This document shows, in pieces, positions 29 to 55,868 of a DNA stretch of 64,000 nucleotides. Location: contig JACJVZ010000003.1 of the NCBI GenBank assembly GCA_020637445.1, positions 210,150-274,149 of the forward strand, read 5' to 3'. This stretch comes from Calditrichota bacterium (lineage in GTDB: Bacteria > Electryoneota > RPQS01). The notes under the pieces were generated by a model. The model saw only the letters and a program-made list of their open reading frames with translations. It did no database searches and had not been told where the DNA came from. How positions within the stretch are numbered: the stretch's first letter is position 1; each line of letters begins with the position of its first letter. Position numbers and translations under genes: made by a program.

Positions 29-69
29 AGAAAAAAGAGCGGGGCACCTGCAGCAGGTGCCGCCGCGAG
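29..69 (-). terminator. Intrinsic terminator of the ankyrin gene, formed by copy 1 of palindromic repeat family 1
   Basis: Core cggggcacctgcagcaggtgccgccgcg (40-67) forms a 7-bp GC-rich stem; on the minus strand it is followed by a T6 tract (complement of aaaaaag at 30-36), about 50 nt after the stop at 112. Confidence 0.6.
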
Positions 70-3676: not shown

Positions 3677-5656
3677 TTACTTCAACAAAACAAGTTTCTG
3701 AGTTTCGACGAATGATCCGGCGGAAACTCGCAGGAGATAGACTCCGGTTGCGAAAGCCGCTCTATCTACCAGCAAGCTATGCACACCGGCATCGAAAACA
3801 TCATCAGCCAACGTTGCCGCTTCGCGGCCTTCGATGGTATAGAGTTTCGCCGACACATGTGAAGTTTGGGGTAAATCGAAAGCAACGCGCGTGACGGCGT
3901 TGAAAGGATTGGGATAGGCCGGATACAACACGAAGGATTCGGCAAGATCTGGACGATCCGGCGAATCCAACGCCAAAATATAGACTCCGACTTCATCTGC
4001 TGTGTCGGGGCAGGCATTGTGGTGAATGATGACCTCGCCGAAAAATTCGGATTCAGGGTGTTCGGGGTTGGTCAAGACGGACACGACGATCTCGCCCGAA
4101 GCTCCCGCCGCAATTTCGCCGGACTCGGGCGCGACATAGAGCCATCCATACGTGGGAGTGTGTTCAACGGTCTCGCAGGTAAACTGCAGAAGTCCGTCGC
4201 CGTCGTTTTGAACAGTTAACGTGTCACGCTCCCACCGTCCAAAAGTACCGATGATGTTGACGCTGGTCTTGTTGTTCTCGTATTGAGGAGTCCCGACGGT
4301 GAAATCAACGACGTTCTCCCCTCCCAAGACCAACTCGACCGATTGCGAATCCGGGGCAATGCACGGTCCCGTAATCAGTAAGGTCGCCTCGCTTTGATTT
4401 GTACCAAGCAAGTATGCACCTTGTTCGTCGGTGATCGTGAAATCTCCGGTTTCAACGACTTCGACTCGCACGCCGGACAACGGCTCATTTGTGCCTTGCG
4501 CCCGAACGATTCCGTTGACGATATAGCCGGGACCAAAGCGGTATAAGCGCGCGGCGTAGTCCGTAGACTGGAACGTCGTTCCGAAGATCAGTCCAGCACT
4601 GCCGCGGTTGTGCATGCCGCGCAGATCCACTCCGTCTGCCGAAAGCTCCGCCGAATGGTCGCTGTTACCGGACGAGTTTAACGTATATATCCGGCCTGTG
4701 AACGGCCCGACTTCGCTCGCAGTTGACCCGCACACAGTTGCGCCGCCGTCATCCGTAGGTCGAATACCGGAGATGCCAAAGAACTCGCCGTCTAACCCCG
4801 TCAAAGTCCAAACATAATTTCCGCTTGAGGTGAGCTTGTAAGCCCACGGCCAATAGATTCCGAAATCAAAGCCCTCATTCCCCGCGACATAGATATTTTC
4901 GTCGTCATCGAGTGCGATGGCTTGCGGCATGATGCGCATGATATCCGGAGAAGGATAGTCATTCATCCAAACAGTGCTTCCCGTAGGCGTGGTTCGTGCC
5001 ACAAATGCATCAAAAGTGAACGCATCCGTGGTCAACCAACCTGCGACCGCCAAGTCGCCATTGGCGAACTCTTGAACACAAGCTCCTTGACTTCCCCCCT
5101 GTCCTGAAACACTTGCAGTCCAGAGCGTGTCGCCGTTAGAGTCGAATTTGATTAGCAGATCGGATTGGGACCCGCTGTTGTCATACATACCCGTATACAA
5201 AACGAGTCCGTTGTCACGGGTCGCACAAATTCCCGCTTTGTTTTCGGGATAGGCGATGTCCAAGTCAAAAGAGATCTCGCCTTGAACGGCTCCGACATCG
5301 TTGATTCGGAGTACCGAGAGAGACGGCAAAGAGTCATTGTCAGACGTAACAACTCCAACTAACGCGATCTGGCCGTCTTCAAATTGCTCCATGCCAAGTA
5401 GGGTGCAGTAGTCACCCTGAAATGACACGGTTCCGTTCCAAACTTGGCTTCCAGTGGCATTCAGCCGCCACAGATCGATGCCCGCATCAGCATTGTGGGC
5501 GCTGGCCACCATTGTATGCCCGTTTTGCAGAATGATTGCGGACTGAACCCATTGAAAAGAGCTCAGGTCAATTTGTTGAGACCAAAGGGTGTCGAGTTCG
5601 GCGCGAGCCGGTTGCATGACAAAGAACAGCAGGACGATGAATCCAAATGACTTCAT
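3677..5656 (-). CDS. Secreted beta-propeller-repeat protein with T9SS C-terminal sorting domain (paralog 1 of 3)
   Basis: Start taken at internal Met (MKSFGFIVLLFFVMQPARA) preceded by AAAGGAG; ORF-track model 3677..5737 begins upstream of the signal peptide. C-terminus YPAYPNPFNAV...GVYLLRVSAGSFVETQKLVLLK is a Por/T9SS CTD. Confidence 0.8.
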   Translation of the reverse strand: MKSFGFIVLLFFVMQPARAELDTLWSQQIDLSSFQWVQSAIILQNGHTMVASAHNADAGIDLWRLNATGSQVWNGTVSFQGDYCTLLGMEQFEDGQIALVGVVTSDNDSLPSLSVLRINDVGAVQGEISFDLDIAYPENKAGICATRDNGLVLYTGMYDNSGSQSDLLIKFDSNGDTLWTASVSGQGGSQGACVQEFANGDLAVAGWLTTDAFTFDAFVARTTPTGSTVWMNDYPSPDIMRIMPQAIALDDDENIYVAGNEGFDFGIYWPWAYKLTSSGNYVWTLTGLDGEFFGISGIRPTDDGGATVCGSTASEVGPFTGRIYTLNSSGNSDHSAELSADGVDLRGMHNRGSAGLIFGTTFQSTDYAARLYRFGPGYIVNGIVRAQGTNEPLSGVRVEVVETGDFTITDEQGAYLLGTNQSEATLLITGPCIAPDSQSVELVLGGENVVDFTVGTPQYENNKTSVNIIGTFGRWERDTLTVQNDGDGLLQFTCETVEHTPTYGWLYVAPESGEIAAGASGEIVVSVLTNPEHPESEFFGEVIIHHNACPDTADEVGVYILALDSPDRPDLAESFVLYPAYPNPFNAVTRVAFDLPQTSHVSAKLYTIEGREAATLADDVFDAGVHSLLVDRAAFATGVYLLRVSAGSFVETQKLVLLK

Positions 5657-5737
5657 AAGGGCTCCTTTCGGGATGCAGCGCAATGACGAAAGACATTTGG
5701 TCCGGGCGGGACCCACTCCCGGGCCGGAAAAGAACAA

Positions 5738-7726
5738 TTAGCGAATATACAGCAATTTCTGGACGGCGAAGGTATTCGGCATCGCGGCCCGAACGAAATA
5801 CAGTCCGGTCGCTTCTCCGGACAAATCAATGTTTATATTGTGATTGCCAGCAGACATGCGACCGTCGACAAGAGTTTTTACCCATTTCCCTGCAATGTTA
5901 TACACCTCCAAGCGGGCGACAGTTTCATTGGGAATCGAGAGTGTAATTGAGGTGTTGCTATTGAAGGGATTTGGATAGGCCGGCGACAGTGAGAACTGGG
6001 CCGGGAGCTCGGAGTGATCGTTGACATCGAGCACACTGACCAGAATGGGTAAAACCATCACGGTGTCTGGACAGGCGTTGCTTCGGATGGTCAGTTGCCC
6101 GTAGAACTCAAAGTTTCCATCGTTGGTGGTGTCAGCATGAGCAGTTATGACGGCGGAAGTGCTTGCATTGGGCGCCAAAACTCCGTGATCAGGCGCAACC
6201 GTGAGCCACGCTCCCGGAGGAGAAATTCCTTCGACGCTGAGAGTGTAGTTCAGGCTACCCGAACCGGAATTGGAAAAAGAAACGTTCGCGGTGCCGTCGG
6301 TCTCGTTTTGCGAAATGATATTGACGCTCGATTGGAGATTCGCAACGTTGGGTTCGCCGACTTCAAAATTTATTTGGACCGACTCGTTCTCGACCACTTG
6401 GACTCCGAAGACGGTATCCGCTTCGATACAGGCACCGTTGACAACAAGGTTATAGGTTCCGGCTTCAATATCAAATTGATAGACTCCATCTACGTCCGTG
6501 AGCGCGTAACGCAGTCCTCCCGAATCCGAGACGCGGGCACCGGGTACGGGATCTCCGGTTTCGGCGCTGCGTACGATTCCGTGAATTCCTGCGGGCGGCG
6601 CTAAAGACAAAATGTAGGCACTGACAGCGTTGTCGTCGGCAACGATTGCACCGACTGCAACAGCTCCGCCGCTGGAGTAGCGAACGATATTGTTGAATCC
6701 GCCTTCTGCGCCGAGATTTCCATAGCGCCACACCCAGCGCGTGAGGTTTTCGTCATCCACCGCGCGCATGAACGGGCCGGTGTCCGTTGCACCGGGTCCG
6801 GACTTTCCGACGAATAACATGCCACCGAACCACGGAGTCGCACCGACAAAACGATCGGCGAAACCTGTTGAGCTAAAGGCGAGCGAATAAGGCGCTCCAT
6901 CTGTAGGATGCACTCCGACAAATCCCGAAGTGCCGTTGACATCGCTTCTGCCTACGATCCAAAGAGTTCCGACCGGGTCGGCAATGACATTAAAGCACGT
7001 TTCGTAGTTGGACGTGCCATAGGTTCGACCCGTACCGATTTGATTTCCGTCCAAATCGAATTCAAGCTCCCAGACGTCCGTGGAGCCCGCGCCGTAACTT
7101 CTGGTTTGAGCGGCGACGACCAGATTACCATCGGGTTTTTGAATGATATCGTTGCCGATATCGGTGTCATTTCCGCCCACCGTACGCGTCCAAACGGTAT
7201 CGCCGTTGGCTTCACACAAGAGTACCCAGACATCTGAATGTGTGGGGTCCGTTGTGCCGCCTCGGTATCCCGTCACGGCGAAGCGGCCGTCGGTAAGTTT
7301 GCAGAGATTCCAGCTTTTGGTCCGGCCTTCGCGAGCATACCCTCTTTGCCACAGGACTTCGCCGGTGGACGCCAGGAATGAGACGAGGCTCACCTCTCTT
7401 CCGTCTTGAATATCCCATCCGGCGGCAACCATCGTGTCGCCGGACAGAGCGATCAGACCGTTGAGCGATTCATTGTCCGTGGAGGCCAAGACGGTTTGCG
7501 CGTAGACCGAATCACCGGACGTGGTGTAGGCACAGATGAGATAGTCATAGTCGGGATCGGTAAAACCGATTTGGGCATAGCCGACTCCGACGATCAGGGT
7601 ATCGTGCACCACGGCGGCGTCGTACAGATAGCATCGATCATTGACCAGAAAAGAGCGCGACCACGTAGTATCGGGCTGCGCAAAGGAAAGACACGGCAGG
7701 AGCAACAGGAGCAGCAGCGCAGGCAT
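5738..7726 (-). CDS. Secreted beta-propeller-repeat protein with T9SS C-terminal sorting domain (paralog 2 of 3)
   Basis: 662 aa; signal peptide MPALLLLLLLPCLSFA; carboxypeptidase-regulatory-like middle domain (GIVRSAETGDPVPGARV); CTD AYPNPFNSNTSI...GLYFVRAAM...KLLYIR. Confidence 0.8.
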   Translation of the reverse strand: MPALLLLLLLPCLSFAQPDTTWSRSFLVNDRCYLYDAAVVHDTLIVGVGYAQIGFTDPDYDYLICAYTTSGDSVYAQTVLASTDNESLNGLIALSGDTMVAAGWDIQDGREVSLVSFLASTGEVLWQRGYAREGRTKSWNLCKLTDGRFAVTGYRGGTTDPTHSDVWVLLCEANGDTVWTRTVGGNDTDIGNDIIQKPDGNLVVAAQTRSYGAGSTDVWELEFDLDGNQIGTGRTYGTSNYETCFNVIADPVGTLWIVGRSDVNGTSGFVGVHPTDGAPYSLAFSSTGFADRFVGATPWFGGMLFVGKSGPGATDTGPFMRAVDDENLTRWVWRYGNLGAEGGFNNIVRYSSGGAVAVGAIVADDNAVSAYILSLAPPAGIHGIVRSAETGDPVPGARVSDSGGLRYALTDVDGVYQFDIEAGTYNLVVNGACIEADTVFGVQVVENESVQINFEVGEPNVANLQSSVNIISQNETDGTANVSFSNSGSGSLNYTLSVEGISPPGAWLTVAPDHGVLAPNASTSAVITAHADTTNDGNFEFYGQLTIRSNACPDTVMVLPILVSVLDVNDHSELPAQFSLSPAYPNPFNSNTSITLSIPNETVARLEVYNIAGKWVKTLVDGRMSAGNHNINIDLSGEATGLYFVRAAMPNTFAVQKLLYIR

Positions 7727-7777
7727 CGTTAAACCTCAGTTGCTAAGTTGAACATAAAAAAGCGGCGGTAAGAACAA

Positions 7778-9772
7778 TCAGCGAATGTACAGCAGTCTTT
7801 GGGTTTGACTGCGGGAGTGATCGGACAAGCGAACAAAATACAATCCGGACGCCAGTCCCTTTGCCTCCCACGACAGGGAATGTTCTCCGGCGGGGAGTTT
7901 CGAATGACTCAGCAGCACGGCGACCTCGCGTCCCGTGACGTCATAGACCCGCAGTGAGACGTCGGACTCGTGATCGAGACCGAACCGCAAGCGTGTGACG
8001 TTGTTGAAGGGATTGGGATAGGCGGGATAGAGCGCAAATTCGGACGGCAAGGCGGGAGCGTCGTCGGCATCGAGTACGACGGCCAGCACATCAAAAGTCA
8101 AGACCGTATCGGGACACGAATTAGTGTGCAGCTTGAGTTCGCCGAAGAAATCGTAGTTTCCGCTGTCGTTGGTGTCGGCCTCGAGAATGACTTGAGCGAC
8201 AAGCGTGCTTCCCGGTGCCAGTCGTCCAAAGGGAGGTTCGACACGAAGCCAGTCATCAGGCGGAATTTCGGTCAGGGGTTCGAAGGAATAGACCAGATCG
8301 CCGCTGCCGGAATTTGAAAATCTCAGGTCGGCGGCGCCCTGTCCATGATTGGGGCCGACGACGTTGATCGAGGAGTAGCTGACGGCGAGATTGGGGACGC
8401 CGGCAGTGATATCGGCTTGAGTATTCTGGTTGGCGAAGACCTCAATACCGTGAACAGTGTCGCCGGCGAAACACGGTCCGCCCGAGAACATCGTGTAAAC
8501 TCCGGGCGGCAGAGCGAGGGCAAACCGTCCGACCGTATCTGAAACGGCATATTGCGGCAGTTCAGCGGCCTGCACGCGCACTCCGGCAACAGGTTCGTTG
8601 GTGACACGATTATGAACGACGCCAGAGATACCCGACGGCGGACTAATCCGCCACATCAGCATGTTATCATGTCCGGAGGTGTTGGCTCTTCCGCAGGCGA
8701 CAAAACCACCGTCGGAGATACGAACCAAATCTTCGAAAGCCCGGCCCAATTCCGTGTCTGTCCAGGTCCAACTTGTGTCCCCGTTGGTCGTCGTCGCCAC
8801 AAGCCACAACCTGCCGGAATTTACACTGGCGCCGGTTTGTCCGGCGAACAGGGTTCCGCCTTCAAGATAGGGAGCGACACCGGTAAATTTCTCGCTGCCA
8901 CGTCCGTCGGTATAGGTTCGTTGCCAAAGTGTTTCTCCCGCGGAATTGAGACGCATGGTGAAAGCATCGCGCAGAGAACCGGAACGGGATTCCCCCGTGA
9001 CAACGACGTCCCCGCTAACGGAATCCACGGTCGCCGCGAAAACCTGCTCGTAGTCTGAATCACCGTATGTCCGTTCACTGATAAAATTGCCGTCGCTGTC
9101 CGTAATCACGATATAGAAATCAAAGTGACGACTGGTGTCGGGATCGCTGGTCGTGCCGACGAGCAGGAGGTTTCCATTGGGCACACGTACGATCTCGTTG
9201 GGCCAATCAGGATTTGATGTGCCAAATGTCCTTGAATAGAGCGAATCGCCATTCGAGTCACAGCGCATCAGGTAGAAATCGAGCGATCCTCCGGGGCCGG
9301 TTCGTCTACCAGCTACATAAAACCCGCCGTCCTGATTGGGCAACAGCGCGGCCGCTTGGTCGGAGCCAGACCAGAAAAACTCCCTTGACCAGACGAAATC
9401 ACCTTGCTGTGAATAGCATACGACCAGTGAGTTTAGGCTTGAATCATGGCCGCACGCCACCAGATTGCCATTTGTAAGCACATCAACGTCAAATAGTTGC
9501 TGAACTGAATTGGGAACTCCGAAAATGCGGGACCAAAGAGTGTCACCAAGCGGATCGTAGCGCACGATGATTGCATCGTCAGAGTTGCCTGCGAACACAG
9601 AGCCAACCGCTACGAACCCGCCGGTGCTAAGCTCAATACAGGAATTTAGTGAAGAGGCGGATCCAAGATCGTAGATACTGGTCCATAGGGTGTCCACCTG
9701 CGCGGAGGCACGAGTCGTCAGACCTGACAAAAGAAGCAGCGCAAGGGCGAGAGTGAATGGCTTGAAACTCAT
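7778..9772 (-). CDS. Secreted beta-propeller-repeat protein with T9SS C-terminal sorting domain (paralog 3 of 3)
   Basis: 664 aa; signal peptide; same domain order as the two downstream paralogs; CTD AYPNPFNNVTRL...GLYFVRLSD...RLLYIR. Confidence 0.8.
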   Translation of the reverse strand: MSFKPFTLALALLLLSGLTTRASAQVDTLWTSIYDLGSASSLNSCIELSTGGFVAVGSVFAGNSDDAIIVRYDPLGDTLWSRIFGVPNSVQQLFDVDVLTNGNLVACGHDSSLNSLVVCYSQQGDFVWSREFFWSGSDQAAALLPNQDGGFYVAGRRTGPGGSLDFYLMRCDSNGDSLYSRTFGTSNPDWPNEIVRVPNGNLLLVGTTSDPDTSRHFDFYIVITDSDGNFISERTYGDSDYEQVFAATVDSVSGDVVVTGESRSGSLRDAFTMRLNSAGETLWQRTYTDGRGSEKFTGVAPYLEGGTLFAGQTGASVNSGRLWLVATTTNGDTSWTWTDTELGRAFEDLVRISDGGFVACGRANTSGHDNMLMWRISPPSGISGVVHNRVTNEPVAGVRVQAAELPQYAVSDTVGRFALALPPGVYTMFSGGPCFAGDTVHGIEVFANQNTQADITAGVPNLAVSYSSINVVGPNHGQGAADLRFSNSGSGDLVYSFEPLTEIPPDDWLRVEPPFGRLAPGSTLVAQVILEADTNDSGNYDFFGELKLHTNSCPDTVLTFDVLAVVLDADDAPALPSEFALYPAYPNPFNNVTRLRFGLDHESDVSLRVYDVTGREVAVLLSHSKLPAGEHSLSWEAKGLASGLYFVRLSDHSRSQTQRLLYIR

Positions 9773-18326: not shown

Positions 18327-18403
18327 TTAGAGCTATAGGTGGCAAACAGTTATTTCGGACAGCGCACGCGCCGTCCGCATAGTATTAAGTCAGGAGATTG
18401 ATC

Positions 18404-19939
18404 GTGGCGACAGCGACAGAGAAGAAGAAAGCCAGCCCGAACGGCGGCAAGGGCAAGACCAAAGTTTATCAGAATTTTATCGCCGGGAAGTGGTGCGACA
18501 GCTCGAACGGAGCAATTGTCGAAAACCGCAATCCGGCGATGTGGTCGGATTTGATTGGAACATTTCCGCACAGCACCAAGGAAGATGTGGACCGCGCGGT
18601 GAAGTCGGCGCAAAAGGGGTTTAAGAATTGGCGCTTGATTCCGCCTCCGCAGAAGGCGAAACTGTTCTTCCGTTTGGTGGAGATTTTGACCGAACGCAAA
18701 GAGCAGCTCGCGTTTGATATGACGCGCGAGATGGGCAAACCGATTTTTGAAACGCGCGGCGACGTGCAGGAAGCGATTGACACGGCGTGGTATGCCAGCG
18801 GCGAAGGCTATCGCATGTTCGGCAAGACCGTTCCGTCGGAACAGAACAACAAGTTCGCCATGACCGTGCGGATGCCGATCGGCGTGGCGGGATTGATCGC
18901 GCCGTGGAATTTCCCGATGGCGATTCCGTCGTGGAAAATTATTCCTGCGCTGATGTGCGGCAACACGGTCGTGTTCAAGCCCGCCGAATTGGTACCGCTG
19001 TCATCGCATAATTTCATTCAAGCGATTTTGGACGCGGGTTTCCCGCCGGAAATCATCAACCTCGTGCATGGGTCGGGCAAAGAAGTCGGCGCACATATGG
19101 TGACGCATCCCGATATTCCGCTGATTTCGTTTACCGGTTCATCGGCGGTGGGTCGCACGATTGGCCGCGACGCGAGCGGCATGCTGAAGCGCGTCTCGAT
19201 GGAACTGGGCGGCAAGAACGCTCAGATCGTGATGAACGACGCCGATTTGGATCACGCGGTGGAGTGTGCGATCTGGGGCGGCTTCGGCACGACGGGTCAG
19301 CGCTGCACGGCGACGTCACGGGTGATTTGTGAAGAAGGCATTCACGATGCGTTCGTCGAGAAGTACAAGAAGGCCGCGAAGAAACTTAAGATCGGTTACG
19401 GCAACAACGCCGACGTGACGATGGGGCCTTGCGTGAGCGAGGGCCAACGCAAGACGGTGCTCGACTATGTCGAAGTCGGCAAGAAGGACGGCGCGGAACT
19501 CGTATTGGGCGGCAAGGCGCTGACCAAGGGTGATCATGCCGACGGATGGTTCATGGAGCCGACGATTTTCACGGGTGTGAAGCCGAACATGCGGATTGCG
19601 CAGGAAGAAATTTTCGGACCGGTGGTGTCGGTGCTGAAGGCCAAGAATTTCGACGACGCAATCAAGATCAGCAACGGAATCGACTACGGTCTGTCGAGCG
19701 CGGTGTTTACGAAGAACGTGGATCAGGCGTTCCGCGCGTTCCGCGACATCGAAGCCGGGATCACCTACGTCAACGCGGCAACAATCGGCGCCGAAGCGCA
19801 CATGCCCTTCGGCGGCCTGAAAGCCACCGGCAACGGTCACCGCGAAGGCGGCTGGGAGGTCTACGAATTCTATTCAGAGACCAAGAGCTGCTACGTTGAT
19901 TACTCGGGCAAGCTCCAAAGAGCGCAGATTGACGAATGA
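18404..19939 (+). CDS. NAD(P)-dependent aldehyde dehydrogenase
   Basis: ALDH signatures ELGGKN and catalytic Cys in GQRCTA; GTG start 6 nt after AGGAG preferred over the ORF-track TTG at 18398. Confidence 0.9.
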
Positions 19940-19947
19940 GTTCAGGT

Positions 19948-19976
19948 CACTGGCGGAGTATGCTGCTCCGCCAGTG
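19948..19976 (+). terminator. Hairpin after the aldehyde dehydrogenase gene (terminator-like, no T-tract)
   Basis: Perfect 11-bp stem cactggcggag / ctccgccagtg with 7-nt loop, 9 nt after the stop codon. Confidence 0.4.
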
Positions 19977-19983
19977 ATTCCGG

Positions 19984-20026
19984 ATTCCGGCGGGGAACCG
20001 CTGCGCTAAATCCCCGCTCGGCGAAT
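19984..20026 (+). repeat. Conserved motif family 2, copy A
   Basis: gattccggcggggaaccgctgcgctaaatccccgctcggcgaa; 6-bp stem cgggga/tccccg around the conserved loop accgctgcgct. Confidence 0.6.
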
Positions 20027-20044
20027 TTGAACAAATTGCAACCT

Positions 20045-21179: not shown

Positions 21180-22526
21180 GTGTTAAGATCCGTGATTTGC
21201 GGGTTGGTAATCTTGATGTTTGCGAATATCTCGCGAGCACAGGAAGTTTCAGTACCACTGGACAGCGCGGGAAAGCTCTTTGTCATCGACACCGACTTGG
21301 AGCGGCGGCTCGGACTGTTTGACGACTATCCGGGATTCATAGAAGCACGACTCTATCAAGCGAACGAAATCGAATTTTATCTTGAAGTCTTGCACGTCAA
21401 AGATTCGGTTACCGTTCGCTCAAGAGTTCCCGAAACTCCCGAACAAGTGGTCGAGATTCGCCGGCGAGTGACGGATGCCATAGCCTTGCGCGCTCCCGAT
21501 GCCATGTACAATCACAAAGGGCGCGGCGGCTTGCTGGTCAACAGCGCAATTTTGTCGATGGGCTATTATAGCTGGGCGGTGCCCGTCGCCACGAACGCTG
21601 AAGGCGCGGGAGCGGTGGCATCGTTTTTCTTTCTCGGATCAGCGGGAATCATGATCCCGTATTTCATAACCGAGCACTCGAACGTCGCGGTTTCGACGGC
21701 GATGATGGACTTCTACGGCGGCTCGCGCGGCATCGCGCATGGTATCGCCCTGTACTACGCGATGGATCCACAAGAAGACAGTGAGCGCGCGCCGTATGGT
21801 TGGGGAGTCGCGGGAAGTCTTGCGGAACGATTCGCGTTCAGTCAGTGGGCGCGCAAGACAGGAATGTCGGATGGCAAAGCCGCCGTAATTGGAGCCGTCG
21901 GGGATTTTGGATTGGTGTTGAGTGTTGTGCTTGGCACCGGCCACGATCTTTGGGACGGAGAACACCAGCAAGACGCTGGACTCATGGCGCTTGGGGGTTC
22001 CGCTGTTGGTTTGTTTGCCGGAAGTCAGTTGGCCGACCACGGCGATTATTCTCGCGGCGACGCATATGTGCTTCGCGCAATCGGTATTTTGGGCGCGGCC
22101 GTGCCTGCGACAATTGCCGATGCTACACACTCGGACGGACAACTGGCCTCGAATCTTGCAACAGCAGGATCAGTAGTAGGCTTAGGCGTCGGTCATGCGA
22201 TATTAAAGAACCGCGACTTCACGCGCTCGCAGGGCCTGGCGATTCTCGTTCTTGAAATCGCGGGAGCGACGCTGGCAACGGCGGTGGTCATTGAAACTGA
22301 AGCGGATGACTCAACGCCGTATTCGGTTGCGGCGACCCTCGGCGGAGCAGCAGGATTTGCGCTCTCGTATTCGATGGCAAGCAAATCCGCGCGCGTTTTA
22401 AGAAAAGCAGACAATTTGGACATAAAGCTGAATCATTGGCCTCTGTTTGCGTCGTTTCCGGAAAAGTCACGCTCTGATTACGAACACAAAGCCAAATTGG
22501 CACTTTCTCTAATCTACGAGTTTTAG
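21180..22526 (+). CDS. Hypothetical membrane protein with signal peptide and Gly/Ala-rich transmembrane segments
   Basis: 448 aa; GTG start; N-terminal soluble region followed by at least five GxxxG-rich hydrophobic segments. Confidence 0.6.
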   Translation: MLRSVICGLVILMFANISRAQEVSVPLDSAGKLFVIDTDLERRLGLFDDYPGFIEARLYQANEIEFYLEVLHVKDSVTVRSRVPETPEQVVEIRRRVTDAIALRAPDAMYNHKGRGGLLVNSAILSMGYYSWAVPVATNAEGAGAVASFFFLGSAGIMIPYFITEHSNVAVSTAMMDFYGGSRGIAHGIALYYAMDPQEDSERAPYGWGVAGSLAERFAFSQWARKTGMSDGKAAVIGAVGDFGLVLSVVLGTGHDLWDGEHQQDAGLMALGGSAVGLFAGSQLADHGDYSRGDAYVLRAIGILGAAVPATIADATHSDGQLASNLATAGSVVGLGVGHAILKNRDFTRSQGLAILVLEIAGATLATAVVIETEADDSTPYSVAATLGGAAGFALSYSMASKSARVLRKADNLDIKLNHWPLFASFPEKSRSDYEHKAKLALSLIYEF

Positions 22527-39422: not shown

Positions 39423-39442
39423 GGGCGGATTGCCATCCGCCC
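39423..39442 (-). other. GC-rich hairpin downstream of hsp20
   Basis: gggcggat-tgcc-atccgccc, perfect 8-bp stem with 4-nt loop. Confidence 0.5.
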
Positions 39443-39471
39443 CTACACAGATTCGCCAAGAGCACAGAGTG

Positions 39472-39499
39472 CGGGGCACCCGCAGCGGGTGCCGCCGCG
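39472..39499. repeat. Palindromic repeat family 1, copy 2 (downstream of hsp20)
   Basis: cggggcacccgcagcgggtgccgccgcg; 26/28 identical to copy 1, and the two differences (t->c, a->g) are base-pairing partners in the stem. Confidence 0.7.
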
Positions 39500-39507
39500 T
39501 TAGTGAG

Positions 39508-39957
39508 TTACTTGGAAACCTTGATCGTGCGGCTCTTGGCCTCTTCGGCCTTGGGGAGCGTGACCTTCAGGACGCCGTCGCTGTAGTTGGCGGAAACGCG
39601 GTCGCCTGTGATGTTGTTCGGCAGGCTGAAACTGCGTTCGAACTTGCCGTAGCTGCGCTCGACGCGGACGAAGTTGTCCTTTTCTTCCTTGATTTCGCGC
39701 TTTTTTTCACCCGAAATGGTAAGGACATTGTTGTTCAGGGTAATGTTGATGTCCTCTTCGCGCATGCCGGGAAGTTCGGCATGAATTTCATAGCTGTCGG
39801 GATTTTCGGCGATATCGACATCGGGGGCCCAGCTTCGCATGATGCCGCCCTTGTTCCAGCCCATCAGTTCATTCAGGGCTTCATCCAGATTGCCTACGGG
39901 GAAACCCGGTTGCATGTGACGGGGAACGTACTTCGTGATCTTCATGGTGATCTCCAT
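39508..39957 (-). CDS. Hsp20/alpha-crystallin family small heat-shock protein
   Basis: Alpha-crystallin domain (APDVDIAENPDSYEIHAELPGMREEDINIT...GVLKVTLPK); alternative start at second ATG (39945), which has a GGAG-like SD. Confidence 0.9.
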   Translation of the reverse strand: MEITMKITKYVPRHMQPGFPVGNLDEALNELMGWNKGGIMRSWAPDVDIAENPDSYEIHAELPGMREEDINITLNNNVLTISGEKKREIKEEKDNFVRVERSYGKFERSFSLPNNITGDRVSANYSDGVLKVTLPKAEEAKSRTIKVSK

Positions 39958-40191
39958 ATCTTTGGTTTGTTGTAGAAAGGGTAAAGAGTTCTGCAGTCAT
40001 TGTGACACTGACCCTTAAGGCAACGGAAATGCCAATTGTGTAAAAAATTGTTTTACAAACAGATAGCGAGAATTTGAAATTTTCTGCATCTGCAACGGTG
40101 GCAGAGTGGGCTGTTAATCCGACAGGTATTATGTCGCATTGGCAGGCAGATGACAGGAGAGATTCAGAAGCCCCCCTTTATCCCCCATTTC

Positions 40192-40219
40192 TCGCGGTGG
40201 CATCTGCTGCGGGTGCCCC
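40192..40219. repeat. Palindromic repeat family 1, copy 3 (inverted, degenerate)
   Basis: cgcggtggcatctgctgcgggtgcccca is 24/28 identical to the reverse complement of copy 1; the stem is kept on the plus-strand transcript only through G-U pairs. Confidence 0.55.
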
Positions 40220-40390
40220 ATACCGAGTCATTTATCGGATTGCGGCGGGAAACCGCTCGCGAAATTCCCACTTGGTGAACAAGACGGAAATGGGGGGAGA
40301 CCGGAGGTTGCATATTCGCCTTTGAGTGGGTATCTTTTTAGATTCCAAGCTCCTTGCGAGTTTCAACCGCTAACTTTGCCCCTGCCACCA

Positions 40391-51597: not shown

Positions 51598-54384
51598 ATG
51601 AGAAACTTAGGCAAGGCTTTGTTGATGACGTTGATCGTCTTGAGCTTGAACGCGGGTTCGGCTTGGGCGAATTTCACGCTGACGATTCTGCACAACAATG
51701 ACGGCGAATCGAAGCTGTCGACACTTGGAACGACGCAGCCTGATTACGCCGGCGCTGCCCGCTTTGTAACGAAGGTCAACGACCTCAAGACTTGGGCAAA
51801 CACGAACACGGACGGTTTTGTAATGCTGTCCTCGGGCGACAACTTTTTTGCGGGTGCTCAGTACAACGCGGGTGTGAACAACGGCGTGTACTATGACGCT
51901 CTGGTGTTGGACAAGATTGGCTACAGCGCACTGGCGTTCGGTAACCACGATTTCGATTTCGGCTGCAACACGCTTGCCGCATTCATGGATGACTATTCGA
52001 CGCTGCCCTATCCTCTGTATGTCATCTGCAACATGGATTTCTCGGCTGAGCCCGCGATGCAGGCTCAGGTGAACGCGGGCCGCATTGTTCCGAGCACGAT
52101 TTTGAACGTGAACGGTACGTTGGTCGGCGTGGTTGGCGCGATTTATCCGGATTTGGCTTCAATTTCCAGCCCCGGTAACGCCGTGGTGGATCCAAACCTT
52201 GCAGCCGCGGTTCAGGCTCAAGTGGATGCCATGGTTTTGAACGGCGCGAATATTATCATCATGATTTCGCACCTTCAGGACACGGCCAACGAAGAAGCTC
52301 TGGTTGCTCAGCTTCAGGGTGTGGACGTTGTGATCGCCGGCGGCGCGGACGAGTTCCTTGCCAACGCGGGCATCTCGCCTGTGTACCCCGGTGACGTTGT
52401 GAACCCGGTTCGCACCTATCCGTTGGTTCGTCAGGACTTGAACGGTGACGACGTGCTGGTAGTTACGACGACGGGCGAATATAAGTATGTTGGCCGTTTA
52501 GTGGTTGAGTTTGACAATAACGGCGACGCGATTGCCGTGGATCCGATTTCGAATCCGGTTTGTGTGTTGGATGCTTCGATTGACGCGGTGAACGGTGTGA
52601 CGGCGGACCCGGCTTGTGTGGCCGCAGTAATCAACCCGGTTGAAACCTACATCAACAATCTGGCCACGCACGTGATTGCGACGACCGACGTTCCGCTGAA
52701 CGGCACGCGTCCGTTGATCCGCCAGGTTGAGACGAACCAGGGCGACATTTTCGCCGATGCCATGCTGTGGGAAGGCCAGCGCAGAGCCGCATCGTTTGGC
52801 GTTTGCGTTCCTAACGTCGCGTTCCAGAACGGCGGTGGTATGCGTAAGAACGACGGTGAAATCCCCGTGGGCAACGTGTCGGAATTGAACACCTACGAAA
52901 TCGCGGCGTTTGACAACCAGGTTTCGATTACGCCGAACATTCCGGTTCAGCAGTTCAAGGAAATGCTGGAAGCGGCTGTTCGCCTTTCGCCCTCGCAGAA
53001 CGGCGGCTTTTTGCAGGTTGCGGGTTTCAAGTACACGTACGACAACACCCGTCAAGCTCAAGTTTTGGACGGCAGCTTGAACGTGGTGACTCCGGGCGAG
53101 CGCGTGCGCGACGTCGTGCTGAATGACGGAACGGTAATCGTCAGCTGCGGCGAAGTCGTCTCGGGCGCACCAGACCTCTGCATCGCGACGAACAACTTCA
53201 CGGCCGGTCAGAGCGGCGACAATATTCCGTTCCGCGGCGCTCCGCTGACGTTGATTGGTGTGACCTATCAGCAGGCTCTGTACAACTACATCGTTGAAGC
53301 GACCGGCTTGAACGGCGTGATCACGGGTGCTCAGTATCCTGTGACGCCGGGACAGTACCGTATCGTCGAGCGCACGTTCACGCAGACGTTCACGAACAAT
53401 AACACGGCTGCGATCTTCACGGCGACGGCAACGACGGACGCGATGACAAACTTGAGCAGCGGATTCAGCGTGAACTTCTACCCGTCGAATGCGCCGACTT
53501 CGATGACGGGCAGCTTCTCGCGCGTTCGTCCGGCTTTGTCGGATATCGATTACAACCTGCCCGAAGCGTTTGCGGTGGGTCGTTACTTCAACTTCACGAC
53601 GGAGAACGACGGTTCGTCAAGCACGAACGCCGACCTTTACTTCAATGCCTGCGAAGTTCCGGCGGGCCTGTCGCTGAACAATCTCGTAGCGGTGCGCACG
53701 GAAGACGGCGGCGCAAACTGGTATACGGTTGCCCCGATTTCCGTTACGAGTATCGGCAACGGCATCTACAAAGCCGAGTTTGAGAATGTCGGCACTATCG
53801 AAGGTTTCTGGGGCTTGGGAGTTCGTGACCGCGTGCTGCCGGTTGAGCTGACGAGCTTTGACGCTGAAGCCATCAACGGCGAAGTTGCTTTGATGTGGAC
53901 GACAGCTTCGGAATCAGACGTCGCACGATTCGAACTTTCGCGCAACGGCGATAAGATTGCCGAGATCACGGCGCAGAACAACCCGACCGGCGCGACCTAC
54001 AGCTTCACCGACCGCGTCGAAGCGGGTTCATACACGTATGAACTTTCCGAAGTGTCGATGAACGGTGAGCACATCGTTTTGGGTACGACCTCAATTGAAC
54101 TTTCCGACGGCGCAGTCGCCAATGAGTACGAATTGGGCGAGGCCCATCCGAACCCGTTCAACCCGACAACCAGCATCGACTTCGTGATTGCCAATGCCGA
54201 AAACGTGAAGCTCGACGTCTTCAACCCGCTGGGTCAAGTTGTGGCCACGTTGGCCGACGGCCGGATGGAAGCCGGCAGCCACACGGTGCAGTTTGACGGC
54301 GCGAACCTGACGAGCGGTATTTACTTCTACCGTTTGGAAGCCGGTTCGTTCTCCGCGATGAAGAAGATGGTTCTGGTCAAGTAG
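51598..54384 (+). CDS. Secreted 5'-nucleotidase/metallophosphoesterase family protein with T9SS C-terminal sorting domain
   Basis: LTILHNNDGESKL and GNHDFDFG motifs; CTD EAHPNPFNPTTSIDF...GIYFYRLEAGSFSAMKKMVLVK. Confidence 0.85.
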   Translation: MRNLGKALLMTLIVLSLNAGSAWANFTLTILHNNDGESKLSTLGTTQPDYAGAARFVTKVNDLKTWANTNTDGFVMLSSGDNFFAGAQYNAGVNNGVYYDALVLDKIGYSALAFGNHDFDFGCNTLAAFMDDYSTLPYPLYVICNMDFSAEPAMQAQVNAGRIVPSTILNVNGTLVGVVGAIYPDLASISSPGNAVVDPNLAAAVQAQVDAMVLNGANIIIMISHLQDTANEEALVAQLQGVDVVIAGGADEFLANAGISPVYPGDVVNPVRTYPLVRQDLNGDDVLVVTTTGEYKYVGRLVVEFDNNGDAIAVDPISNPVCVLDASIDAVNGVTADPACVAAVINPVETYINNLATHVIATTDVPLNGTRPLIRQVETNQGDIFADAMLWEGQRRAASFGVCVPNVAFQNGGGMRKNDGEIPVGNVSELNTYEIAAFDNQVSITPNIPVQQFKEMLEAAVRLSPSQNGGFLQVAGFKYTYDNTRQAQVLDGSLNVVTPGERVRDVVLNDGTVIVSCGEVVSGAPDLCIATNNFTAGQSGDNIPFRGAPLTLIGVTYQQALYNYIVEATGLNGVITGAQYPVTPGQYRIVERTFTQTFTNNNTAAIFTATATTDAMTNLSSGFSVNFYPSNAPTSMTGSFSRVRPALSDIDYNLPEAFAVGRYFNFTTENDGSSSTNADLYFNACEVPAGLSLNNLVAVRTEDGGANWYTVAPISVTSIGNGIYKAEFENVGTIEGFWGLGVRDRVLPVELTSFDAEAINGEVALMWTTASESDVARFELSRNGDKIAEITAQNNPTGATYSFTDRVEAGSYTYELSEVSMNGEHIVLGTTSIELSDGAVANEYELGEAHPNPFNPTTSIDFVIANAENVKLDVFNPLGQVVATLADGRMEAGSHTVQFDGANLTSGIYFYRLEAGSFSAMKKMVLVK

Positions 54385-54448
54385 CCAGCCAGCATAGACG
54401 CTGGACTCAATGCGCTTCGCGGGCGCTTGGGTTTATTGAACAAGAAAA

Positions 54449-54481
54449 CGCCCCGACCGTTTGGCCGGGGCGTTTTTTGTT
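54449..54481. terminator. Bidirectional intrinsic terminator between the 5'-nucleotidase gene and the convergent ABC operon
   Basis: Stem cgccccgacc / ggccggggcg, preceded by aaaa and followed by ttttttg. Confidence 0.8.
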
Positions 54482-54486
54482 TGAGG

Positions 54487-54527
54487 ATTCCGACAGGGAA
54501 CCGCTGCGCTTGGTCCCTGCTCGGAGA
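54487..54527 (+). repeat. Conserved motif family 2, copy B
   Basis: gattccgacagggaaccgctgcgcttggtccctgctcggagag; 34 of 41 positions identical to copy A; stem caggga/tccctg differs from copy A by a compensatory pair. Confidence 0.6.
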
Positions 54528-54533
54528 GTTATG

Positions 54534-55868
54534 TTATCCCAACTCCGTTGCCAGTCTCTTTCTAAAAATGACAATTGCGATGCCGGTCATGATCGCGGCC
54601 ATACCGAGACAGACTCCGCATTCGAGCAGGATTCCGGAGATTCCTTGATTGCGCCAAAAGATGTCATTGAATCCGCGCATCGCCCAGTAGACGGGCGTAA
54701 CTTCACTTATTGCGCGAATAAACGGCGGGAGCATGAAGCTGGGAAACATCGCGCCGCCGATGGACGAGATGCTTAGGATCACTACGACTTGAATGCCGCT
54801 TGCTTGCTCTTCGGTGCCGGACAGCGCGGAGATAATCAATCCGACGCCGCTCATCACAATCGCGGTCACCACAATCATCAGAAGCAGCGCGGGCAAGTGA
54901 TCCCAAATCTGCAAGTCGAAAATCAACCAGCCATAAACCATCATCGCAAAAAGTTGAAAGCTGCCGAGCGTGACGGCATACAGAAGTTTCGAGAGCAGAA
55001 TATCGCCTCCGGTCGCACCCATCAACAAGAGTCTTTGCGCCGTGCCCGAGCGCATTTCGCGCAGCAGCGACGCGGCGATTGCACCGACGCCGAAGAGCAT
55101 GAACATCACGGCCGTGCCGGCGGTCGTATGTGACACGGCGGAATTGACGACTTGTTGACCGACGACTTGCGTGCGGGTGATTTGATTTACTTTGTCAAAA
55201 CTCTGCGCCATGTTGAAACCGCCGCTATCCGCGGCCGCGTTGTTCTCACCGAGCAGCATGTCTTCAGGCACGAGGTCCTTGAAGCTCATACCACTGTCGG
55301 GAAGTTCTACGCCGAAGTTTTTCTCAATCGCCGAAGCGAGATCCTTGTTGAACATCGACGTTGACATTGAGTCCAGCATGCCGGACATCATCGCCGACGG
55401 CATCAGCATTGGAAAGGTCTCGAACGAAGTCTTTTGCATCAGCCCGAGCAAAACTCCGGCAGTTATTGGATCACGAGTATCTTCGAGAATGTGCGCGCGG
55501 ATTTCACCGTCTTTAATGCCTTCGGTGAAATCCGAGGGAATCACCAAAGCAGCCGAGTAGGTTCCACCGTAAACAAGTTTTGCCGCGGCGGCACTGTCAT
55601 ACATGGAGCTGTCCTTAGGCGAACGGTCGATCATCTGCAGTTCTTCGAGTTTGTCGAGCGAAGAAATGAACCGCGCGCCCGCCGGGCCGAGGTCCTCGTT
55701 GACGGCAATCACTCTCAGCTCTTTCAGTCCTTCACTGCCTTGACCGCCGAACACAAATCCAAACACGACGATCATCACCATAGGCACAATAAAAGCAAGC
55801 CCGAGTGCGACGGGGTCCGCGAGAAAGATCGCGAGGTCTTTGCGGGCCAGATACCAGATTTTTTTCAT
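54534..55868 (-). CDS. ABC-2 family transporter permease with large extracytoplasmic loop
   Basis: 444 aa; N-terminal TM, ~200-aa soluble domain, C-terminal TM bundle; overlaps upstream ATPase gene by 4 nt. Confidence 0.8.
   Translation of the reverse strand: MKKIWYLARKDLAIFLADPVALGLAFIVPMVMIVVFGFVFGGQGSEGLKELRVIAVNEDLGPAGARFISSLDKLEELQMIDRSPKDSSMYDSAAAAKLVYGGTYSAALVIPSDFTEGIKDGEIRAHILEDTRDPITAGVLLGLMQKTSFETFPMLMPSAMMSGMLDSMSTSMFNKDLASAIEKNFGVELPDSGMSFKDLVPEDMLLGENNAAADSGGFNMAQSFDKVNQITRTQVVGQQVVNSAVSHTTAGTAVMFMLFGVGAIAASLLREMRSGTAQRLLLMGATGGDILLSKLLYAVTLGSFQLFAMMVYGWLIFDLQIWDHLPALLLMIVVTAIVMSGVGLIISALSGTEEQASGIQVVVILSISSIGGAMFPSFMLPPFIRAISEVTPVYWAMRGFNDIFWRNQGISGILLECGVCLGMAAIMTGIAIVIFRKRLATELG

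Follow-up and report, generated by a model that had tools for sequence, protein, structure and literature searches.

Two closely similar copies of a short intergenic motif, about 34 kb apart, lie in a stretch of 64,000 nucleotides from a Calditrichota bacterium (hereafter the window), and the question that they raise is what kind of element they represent. The preliminary description of this DNA proposed a structured element recognised by a protein or an RNA, in which an invariant loop sits on a covarying stem. Our analysis confirmed the observation itself and partly supported its interpretation, while the emphasis proved to be wrong: conservation does not reside in the loop, and the element is independent of neighbouring genes and terminators.

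Both sequences are present as they were quoted, although the coordinates had to be moved by one base and the length of each copy is 43 nt instead of 41, with an identity of 35/43 (Table 1). The window contains the 15-mer GGGAACCGCTGCGCT, described as common to both copies, two times and no more: at 19993 and at 54496, in each case on the + strand. Copy A is located between the aldehyde dehydrogenase gene (Aldedh) and a DinB-family gene and ends 19 nt before the DinB ATG (20045), in agreement with the distance of about 20 nt first given. By its DinB protein, the window was assigned to contig JAGQRY010000015.1 of MAG GCA_020439805.1; close homologues bear the name Calditrichaeota or Calditrichota, and a literature search on the assembly gave no result. 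Copy B lies, as had also been described, between convergent genes, which encode a type-IX-secreted 5'-nucleotidase and an ABC-2 permease, at 5 nt from the stop codon of the permease gene. When we compared the window with itself by BLAST, the pair reached 48.2 bits, whereas the best score among 40 dinucleotide-preserving shuffles was 37.4 bits. At 53 nt and 79% identity, it exceeds in length every other two-copy direct repeat reported for the window. Since the similarity stops at 53 nt, the pair does not come from a larger duplication.

Two other repeats were noted in the window. The strongest direct repeat in the window, 3882-3925 against 7987-8029 (50 bits), stems from three tandem paralogous genes of about 660-690 aa at 3677-9772 (-), whose versions in relatives carry CarboxypepD_reg domains and type-IX secretion tails. 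The match of 21965-21992 with 54389-54417 (29 nt, 90%), which pairs the interior of a 448-aa ORF with the spacer after the 5'-nucleotidase stop codon, is probably due to chance, its 36.5 bits being inside the shuffle range, and was discarded.

Table 1. Positions of the repeat copies, their parts and the adjoining features (window coordinates unless a related locus, designated by an L number, is named).
Feature	Position	Strand	Remarks
Copy A	19983-20025	+	Covariance model 75.4 bits, E=1e-20; 43 nt identical to copies in L017, L071 and L075
Copy A, outer stem	19987-19990/20018-20021		
Copy A, bulged C	20017		
Copy A, inner stem	19991-19996/20011-20016		
Copy A, loop	19997-20010		14 nt
Copy B	54486-54528	+	Covariance model 64.8 bits, E=2e-17
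Copy B, outer stem	54489-54493/54521-54525		
Copy B, bulged C	54520		
Copy B, inner stem	54494-54499/54514-54519		
Copy B, loop	54500-54513		
Third, decayed copy	40236-40283	+	CGGATTGCGGCGGGAAACCGCT-CGCGAAATTCCCACTTGGTGAAC; 28.5 bits, E=2e-6; 48.1 bits with model R2
Further members	L102, tandem pair		Covariance model
Further members	L103, tandem pair		Covariance model
Further member	L102, 16981-17047		Covariance model
Further member	L101, 14490-14530		Covariance model
Further member	L104, 9675-9715		Covariance model
Aldedh gene	18398-19939		
Hairpin after Aldedh	19947-19977	+	12 bp; not part of the repeat; equivalent hairpin in relatives without the repeat
5'-nucleotidase gene	51598-54384	+	
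Bidirectional terminator-like hairpin	54445-54478	.	5'-nucleotidase/ABC-2 permease spacer; G+C-rich stem, U-runs on both strands; kept in relatives without copy B
ABC-2 permease gene	54534-55868	-	
fam1 copy	40196-40219	-	16 nt upstream of the third copy
fam1 copy	41-64	+	
fam1 copy	39473-39496	+	
fam3 copy	39423-39446	-	Canonical GTAG-headed REP (GTAGGGGCGGATGGCAATCCGCCC); identical 24-mer in L069 1011-1034 and L075 5949-5972

Each copy had been described as forming a 6-bp stem around the core. This stem is real, and the hairpin continues from it through a one-base bulge into an outer stem, giving about 10-11 bp. In copies A and B the inner stem is C(G/A)GGGA/UCCC(C/U)G, the outer stem is CCG(G/A)/(U)CGG and the loop has 14 nt. 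Folding energies of the two copies were -20 to -21 kcal/mol as RNA and -10.6 to -12.3 kcal/mol as DNA, with similar values on both strands, and the z-scores of the RNA fold ranged from -1.5 to -3. Copy B carries the A-U version at pair 12-35 and also A-U at pair 10-38. When all 19 sequences of the family described below were aligned, 89% of cells were paired; pair 12-35 was G-C in 11 copies, A-U in 4, C-G in 1 and U-G in 1, and pair 15-32 was G-C in 16 and A-U in 2. The covariation score of this alignment was reached by none of 500 shuffles, and slid registers were far worse. RNAalifold, run independently, gave the same helix with the bulge shifted by one position. The coordinated change between G-C and A-U noted from the two window copies is therefore genuine, and compensatory change maintains the stem of the repeat family. 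An alternative hairpin with a GNRA tetraloop (GGCGG-GGAA-CCGCU) is feasible in copy A and in the third window copy; it was rejected because both substitutions of copy B destroy it.

A pattern search, covariance modelling and a comparison with RNA family databases had been suggested for this motif, and the first two showed that it is present in relatives. A scan of GTDB species-representative genomes with the core pattern gave four loci with matching flanks (L005, L069, L017 and L020) in three related MAGs, and a metagenome scan in which the stem was left free added L071, L073 (identical to L074), L075 and L082; the remaining 11 metagenome matches lie inside genes and were set aside as chance. 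The first covariance model was built from ten copies, 90% identical column by column, and it recovered new members in loci fetched for other reasons (L101, L102, L103 and L104) together with a third copy in the window. A second model, R2, was built from all 19 sequences and found no copies beyond the 19-20 in 303 kb. These 19-20 copies occupy 13 independent intergenic sites in about 303 kb from the window genome and at least six related Calditrichota genomes; about half of them were found by searching for the motif itself, and the count refers to 303 kb of clade DNA, not to complete genomes. The viral contigs, phages and plasmids searched gave no match other than a single weak 25-nt plasmid hit (E=0.7), and a loose flank-to-flank regular expression returned mainly coding false positives and no added members. 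Rfam placed nothing on the motif, either at gathering thresholds (window and 14 related loci) or in E-value mode (copy A), and no Rfam family reached threshold anywhere in the window.

Comparison of the members showed which parts of the unit are conserved. First, the hairpin base, the bulge and the flanks, cAGATTCCGGC...GCTCGGCGAa, are shared by the whole family, and sequences outside the conserved 43 nt are unrelated between copies. Second, the loop that had appeared invariant in the two window copies is the mark of one subfamily. The top of the hairpin is elsewhere a GGGA or UGGA tetraloop on a 7-bp stem (L104, L101) or an unrelated loop of 12-16 nt, which in L102 and L103 is a 12-nt loop on CyGGGTT/AACCCGG, and the separate L102 member carries the usual loop with an 18-nt hairpin inserted. 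The unit accordingly measures about 37-65 nt, with the 3-4 outer base pairs, the one-base bulge and the first pairs of the inner stem conserved, while the top varies in sequence and length and remains paired. Third, units are found in compound forms. In the tandem pairs of L102 and L103 a gap of 3 nt separates the two model matches and the two units differ, and L101 contains a partial internal duplication of the unit. Finally, the degree of preservation differs greatly among copies. The copies identical to copy A stand at non-orthologous sites in different species, in genomes whose proteins are only 75-86% identical to those of the window. The third window copy, in the divergent spacer between the Hsp20 and zinc-ribbon-CorA genes, shows an additional compensatory pair at 15-32 (G-C to A-U), but three of its cells are non-standard pairs.

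All sites are intergenic. Of the 13, eight lie between unidirectional genes, three between convergent genes and one between divergent genes, and one is cut by a contig end, leaving its class unknown. The unit is mostly 0-12 nt from a stop codon, several copies are 7-47 nt from a start codon, and at the unidirectional sites it is in sense orientation to the flanking genes in four cases and antisense in four. The neighbours are functionally unrelated, and include genes for DinB, ABC-2 permease, Hsp20, CorA, SufB-like, TMEM175-like, glyoxalase, Phd antitoxin, methyltransferase, AhpC-like, adenine glycosylase and PyrE-like proteins. No transposase was found among the flanking genes of the repeat sites, and neither a RAYT/Y1 (PF01797-type) gene nor another HUH gene was found among the called genes or tested ORFs of the approximately 303 kb sampled. 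No promoter-like site or U-tract terminator accompanying the unit was found. The three window copies share one orientation, which their flanking genes do not. GC skew was positive on the motif strand in 7 of 9 independent loci, a bias that falls short of significance (one-sided p about 0.09) and is not separable from gene strand.

We then compared orthologous positions in relatives, using Aldedh orthologue loci (84-98% identical) and ABC-2 permease orthologue loci (75-86% identical). The position of copy A after Aldedh is empty in L093, L094, L095, L097 and L107 (L107 was judged by reading), and a copy is found at the orthologous place only in the sister species (Aldedh 96% identical). There, three independent assemblies (L104-L106) all terminate inside the motif, which is the signature of a multicopy sequence in short-read assembly. 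Copy B is absent after the ABC-2 permease gene in L099, L101, L102 and L103. In the other direction, a copy lies in L104 at 3 nt from the stop codon of a 1100-aa gene, on its 3' side, whereas the window has seven unrelated bases there. Some sites are older: the S9-peptidase/adenine-glycosylase spacer is occupied in L101 and L102 by very different variants, and the position of the third window copy matches that of the tandem pairs of L102 and L103. These filled and empty orthologous sites and the older shared sites show that, as species diverge, copies are acquired, stay in place, degrade and disappear. No insertion boundary or target-site duplication could be defined, since the empty sites come from relatives too diverged to give an exact boundary; the only repeat that flanks a unit is GATTCCG, a 7-nt local duplication at 19976-19982 directly 5' of copy A. 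Gain and loss could in principle also proceed by recombination or deletion instead of transposition.

The same loci clarified the relation to terminators. Both window copies do adjoin a terminator-like hairpin, as had been stated, but the two do not form a functional unit. The hairpin after Aldedh is of the same kind as in the window in L095 and L097 and a different one in L094 and L107, and the terminator of the 5'-nucleotidase/permease spacer is retained in all four relatives that lack copy B. Since relatives without the repeat also have the terminator, the terminator predates the repeat, and copies A and B were inserted beside a hairpin that was already there.

Gene content beside both window copies also differs among relatives (window 19940-20044 and 51598-54533 against L093-L097, L107 and L099-L103). 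In these relatives the place after Aldedh is taken by a DUF4256 gene, by an additional DinB gene, by three genes or by no gene at all, and L101-L103 lack the 5'-nucleotidase gene that neighbours copy B. The repeats are located at gene-content breakpoints.

Taken together, we propose, with a probability of roughly 0.65, that the motif is a family of short, dispersed, palindromic intergenic repeats that is REP-like and specific to this Calditrichota clade. The copies land beside gene ends in either orientation and next to unrelated genes; young copies are nearly identical between genomes and old copies decay; and tandem, partial and mosaic arrangements with other palindromic repeats occur. As a mechanism, a trans-acting enzyme may recognise and cut the unit at its conserved base, bulge and flanks when the hairpin is extruded in single-stranded DNA. 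The closest model for such an enzyme would be an HUH/Y1 transposase of the RAYT or IS200-IS605 type, which would copy the unit to new sites. Recognition of this kind would explain why young copies are nearly identical across species although the top of the hairpin may vary freely. Once resident in a 3' untranslated region, a copy may slow 3' exonucleases or transcriptional read-through by its RNA hairpin (about -20 kcal/mol), like REPs of E. coli. The exact core pattern gave only 1-2 matches per GTDB representative genome, from which we estimate that copies per genome are possibly tens and not hundreds.

If this reading is correct, the family is an undescribed one, now provided with a covariance model and a consensus, in a phylum known almost only from metagenome bins. 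It would explain the short-read assembly breaks at the motif, and annotators should then not call the hairpin a riboswitch or a small RNA. The combination of a conserved base, a replaceable top and a canonical GTAG REP nearby would also make a natural case for studying what a REP-mobilising enzyme recognises. The object itself would be of a fairly ordinary kind in an under-studied phylum, and it opens no new biological principle.

The likeness to REP/BIME elements, which are associated with RAYT (TnpA-REP Y1) transposases, is extensive. Both are short, G+C-rich, imperfect palindromes with a bulge, and in both the stem is kept by compensatory changes. REPs are mostly found between unidirectional and convergent ORFs at no more than 20 bp from their 3' ends (PMC3733652), and the site classes and stop-codon proximity of the present repeat match this published pattern: it lies strictly outside genes, as a rule no more than about 12 nt from the 3' end of an ORF, in either orientation, at unidirectional or convergent sites and rarely in divergent spacers. 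Several families per genome, mosaics, and copies that are homogeneous across related species while sites turn over are common to both as well. There are also clear differences. According to PMC2817692 and PMC3733652, REPs are marked at one end by an unpaired GT(A/G)G head or CGTC tag. The present repeat has neither, its ends being cAGATTCCGG and CTCGGCGAa on one strand and TTCGCCGAG and CCGGAATCTg on the other, and for lack of such a tag we class the family as REP-like but outside the GTAG/CGTC superfamilies. In addition, the unit is longer (43 nt against the usual 20-40 bp), with an interrupted 11-bp stem and a 14-nt loop in the main subfamily, and its top is modular, ranging from a tetraloop to an insert of 37 nt. 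Instead of inverted (REPIN-type) dimers, of which none was seen, direct tandem pairs occur in L102 and L103. Finally, no RAYT, a single-copy gene that in REP systems is flanked by two inverted REP copies, was found in the 303 kb sampled, and the copy number may be only tens, where REPs number tens to hundreds per genome.

Other mobile or hairpin-based systems share part of these features. The subterminal hairpins of IS200/IS605 elements and the ORF-less PATEs resemble the repeat in being imperfect hairpins with conserved base and flanks that are putative sites of single-stranded-DNA recognition and cleavage, and possibly in a replication-strand orientation bias; however, the present unit is a single hairpin, without a left-end/right-end pair around cargo and without tnpA or tnpB nearby, and no cleavage tetranucleotides were identified. 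The repeat also shares with integron attC sites a hairpin whose base is conserved, whose centre varies and which has an extrahelical base, and gene content next to both window copies differs between relatives. Unlike attC sites, it has neither RYYYAAC/GTTRRRY cores nor an integron integrase, forms no cassette array in which every ORF has its site, and occurs in both orientations relative to genes. MITEs have terminal inverted repeats and a target-site duplication and usually measure 100-500 bp, whereas the present unit of 37-65 nt is itself one hairpin and probably not a typical MITE.

Several further identities were tried and rejected. A CRISPR repeat does not fit, as the window copies are 14-34 kb apart with no regular array and tandem pairs occur only in L102 and L103. 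An intrinsic terminator does not fit either: there is no U-tract, the tails being GCGAA... and GGAAUC..., and a separate terminator hairpin already stands beside copies A and B. The segment AGCGCAGCGGTT presumably resembles a tRNA D-arm, but ARAGORN found no tRNA in the window and the idea of a tRNA fragment was dropped. The adjoining stop codons are TAA or TAG and none is TGA, which argues against a SECIS or read-through signal. For an ECF-sigma promoter with GGGAAC as the -35 box there is no fitting -10 box; no gene lies downstream of copy B or of three other sites, and short-loop members lack GGGAAC.

In another reading, the element would be the substrate of a mobilisation or processing system so far undescribed for REPs: an enzyme confined to Calditrichota, and different from a GTAG-recognising RAYT, would read an untagged modular hairpin on single-stranded DNA by its conserved base, bulge and flanks (AGATTCCGG/CTCGGCGAA). 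Alternatively, the host would have domesticated the hairpin for a strand-polar chromosomal role, which we considered because 7 of 9 loci share their orientation with the GC skew. We hold this reading, in either form, to be improbable.

It is also unlikely that the motif is a double-stranded DNA site for a host protein, such as a nucleoid, topology or replication-polarity factor or a global regulator, kept at dispersed intergenic sites by selection and not spread by transposition. The high conservation of base and flanks across species would suit such a site, as would the common orientation of the three window copies despite their flanking genes and the positive skew at most loci, and REP/BIME sequences of E. 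coli are well known to bind gyrase and IHF (PMC2817692). What speaks for a hairpin instead of a duplex half-site is the compensatory pairing within one strand together with the replacement of the centre by unrelated hairpins. Moreover, orthologous positions are not conserved, and the orientation bias is the non-significant, gene-strand-confounded one given above.

We consider it quite unlikely that the motif is a structured cis-acting RNA, binding a protein or a ligand in a 5' or 3' UTR and regulating the adjacent gene, which is the part of the original proposal that found no support. The description as a structured, covarying element holds, and the stable RNA hairpin, its conserved bulge and base and the copies close to start codons are all compatible with regulation. 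The equal split between sense and antisense at unidirectional sites, with three more sites convergent, is not, and the flanking genes (for instance DinB, ABC-2 permease, SufB-like, TMEM175-like and glyoxalase) have nothing in common. Orthologous UTRs of relatives lack the element, and the loop, the usual point of contact for a ligand or protein, is not conserved across the family, which has no Rfam match.

A small independent RNA gene or antisense RNA present in few copies per genome is very unlikely: the unit is compact, structured and conserved in intergenic DNA, but it comes without a promoter-like site or U-tract terminator, its conserved part is just 43 nt with unrelated flanks outside, and tandem, half and decayed copies exist. 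Chance similarity, which the preliminary description had also discounted, or membership in a larger segmental duplication is practically negligible, for although a shared 15-mer alone is unremarkable (about 1-2 expected in 64 kb by our own estimate) and 8 of 100 shuffles reach the match number of the real window in a core search with up to 3 mismatches, the score of the pair exceeds that of every shuffle, its similarity is confined to 53 nt, and near-identical units with different flanks occur in other genomes.

Matches to the core outside the phylum were examined as possible family members. A GTAG-headed repeat of Gastranaerophilales (cttgcGGTGGGAACCGCTGCGCTwTTCCCACCCTAC; CALUPP01, URHD01 and DVOA01) shares a 21-nt hairpin top, GGGAACCGCTGCGCT-NN-TCCC, and is likewise intergenic and multicopy, with about 35 copies in the loci fetched. 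The likeness ends exactly at the searched pattern, and phylum, flanks and the GTAG head are different, so these matches were not accepted as members. They come from CALUPP01 (L010, L015, L018, L027, L028, L030, L036, L039, L040, L051, L053, L054, L063, L068 and L070), URHD01 (L002, L008, L016, L032, L057 and L064) and DVOA01 (L019, L033 and L055), and in L051 an inverted copy (GCGGCGGTTCCCACC) lies upstream and pairs with the repeat, an arrangement that resembles a REPIN. The Acidobacteriota matches (MFD01633/MFD03399; L001, L026, L050, L058 and L065) were also rejected, the simplest account being one chance match multiplied by copy number; the 21-mer there is inside a multicopy element of more than 600 nt with nearly identical copies, probably an insertion sequence.

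The repeat, which we number fam2, shares its genomes with other palindromic repeats. One of these, fam3, is the canonical GTAG-headed REP of Table 1, and its identity in three different genomes points to the existence of a RAYT/REP system in this clade of Calditrichota. In L069, a full copy of fam2 is followed by a 20-nt half copy fused to fam3. The other, fam1 (GGGGCACCyGCAGCrGGTGCCGCC, with a longer consensus GGGGCACCyGCAGCrGGTGCCGCCGCG), is probably what the preliminary description listed as its first motif. L069 has four same-strand copies of fam1 within 8 kb, at 7-30, 5091-5114, 6243-6266 and 7499-7522. In the window, two oppositely oriented fam1 copies flank the Hsp20 gene; the 149-aa gene at 39508-39957, considered as a candidate RAYT between inverted fam1 copies, is this Hsp20 gene and not a transposase. 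A mosaic of fam1, TAaCCGAG and fam2 is found both in the window at 40196-40283 and in L017. In L017 the mosaic is bracketed by a hairpin repeat, CCCCCCATTCCTGCCGCAGGAATGGGGGG, in direct orientation at 1895-1923 and 2097-2125 with about 25 nt of shared upstream sequence, and in the window a weaker pair, CCCCCATTTC ... GGAAATGGGGG, brackets the corresponding mosaic at 40183-40297.
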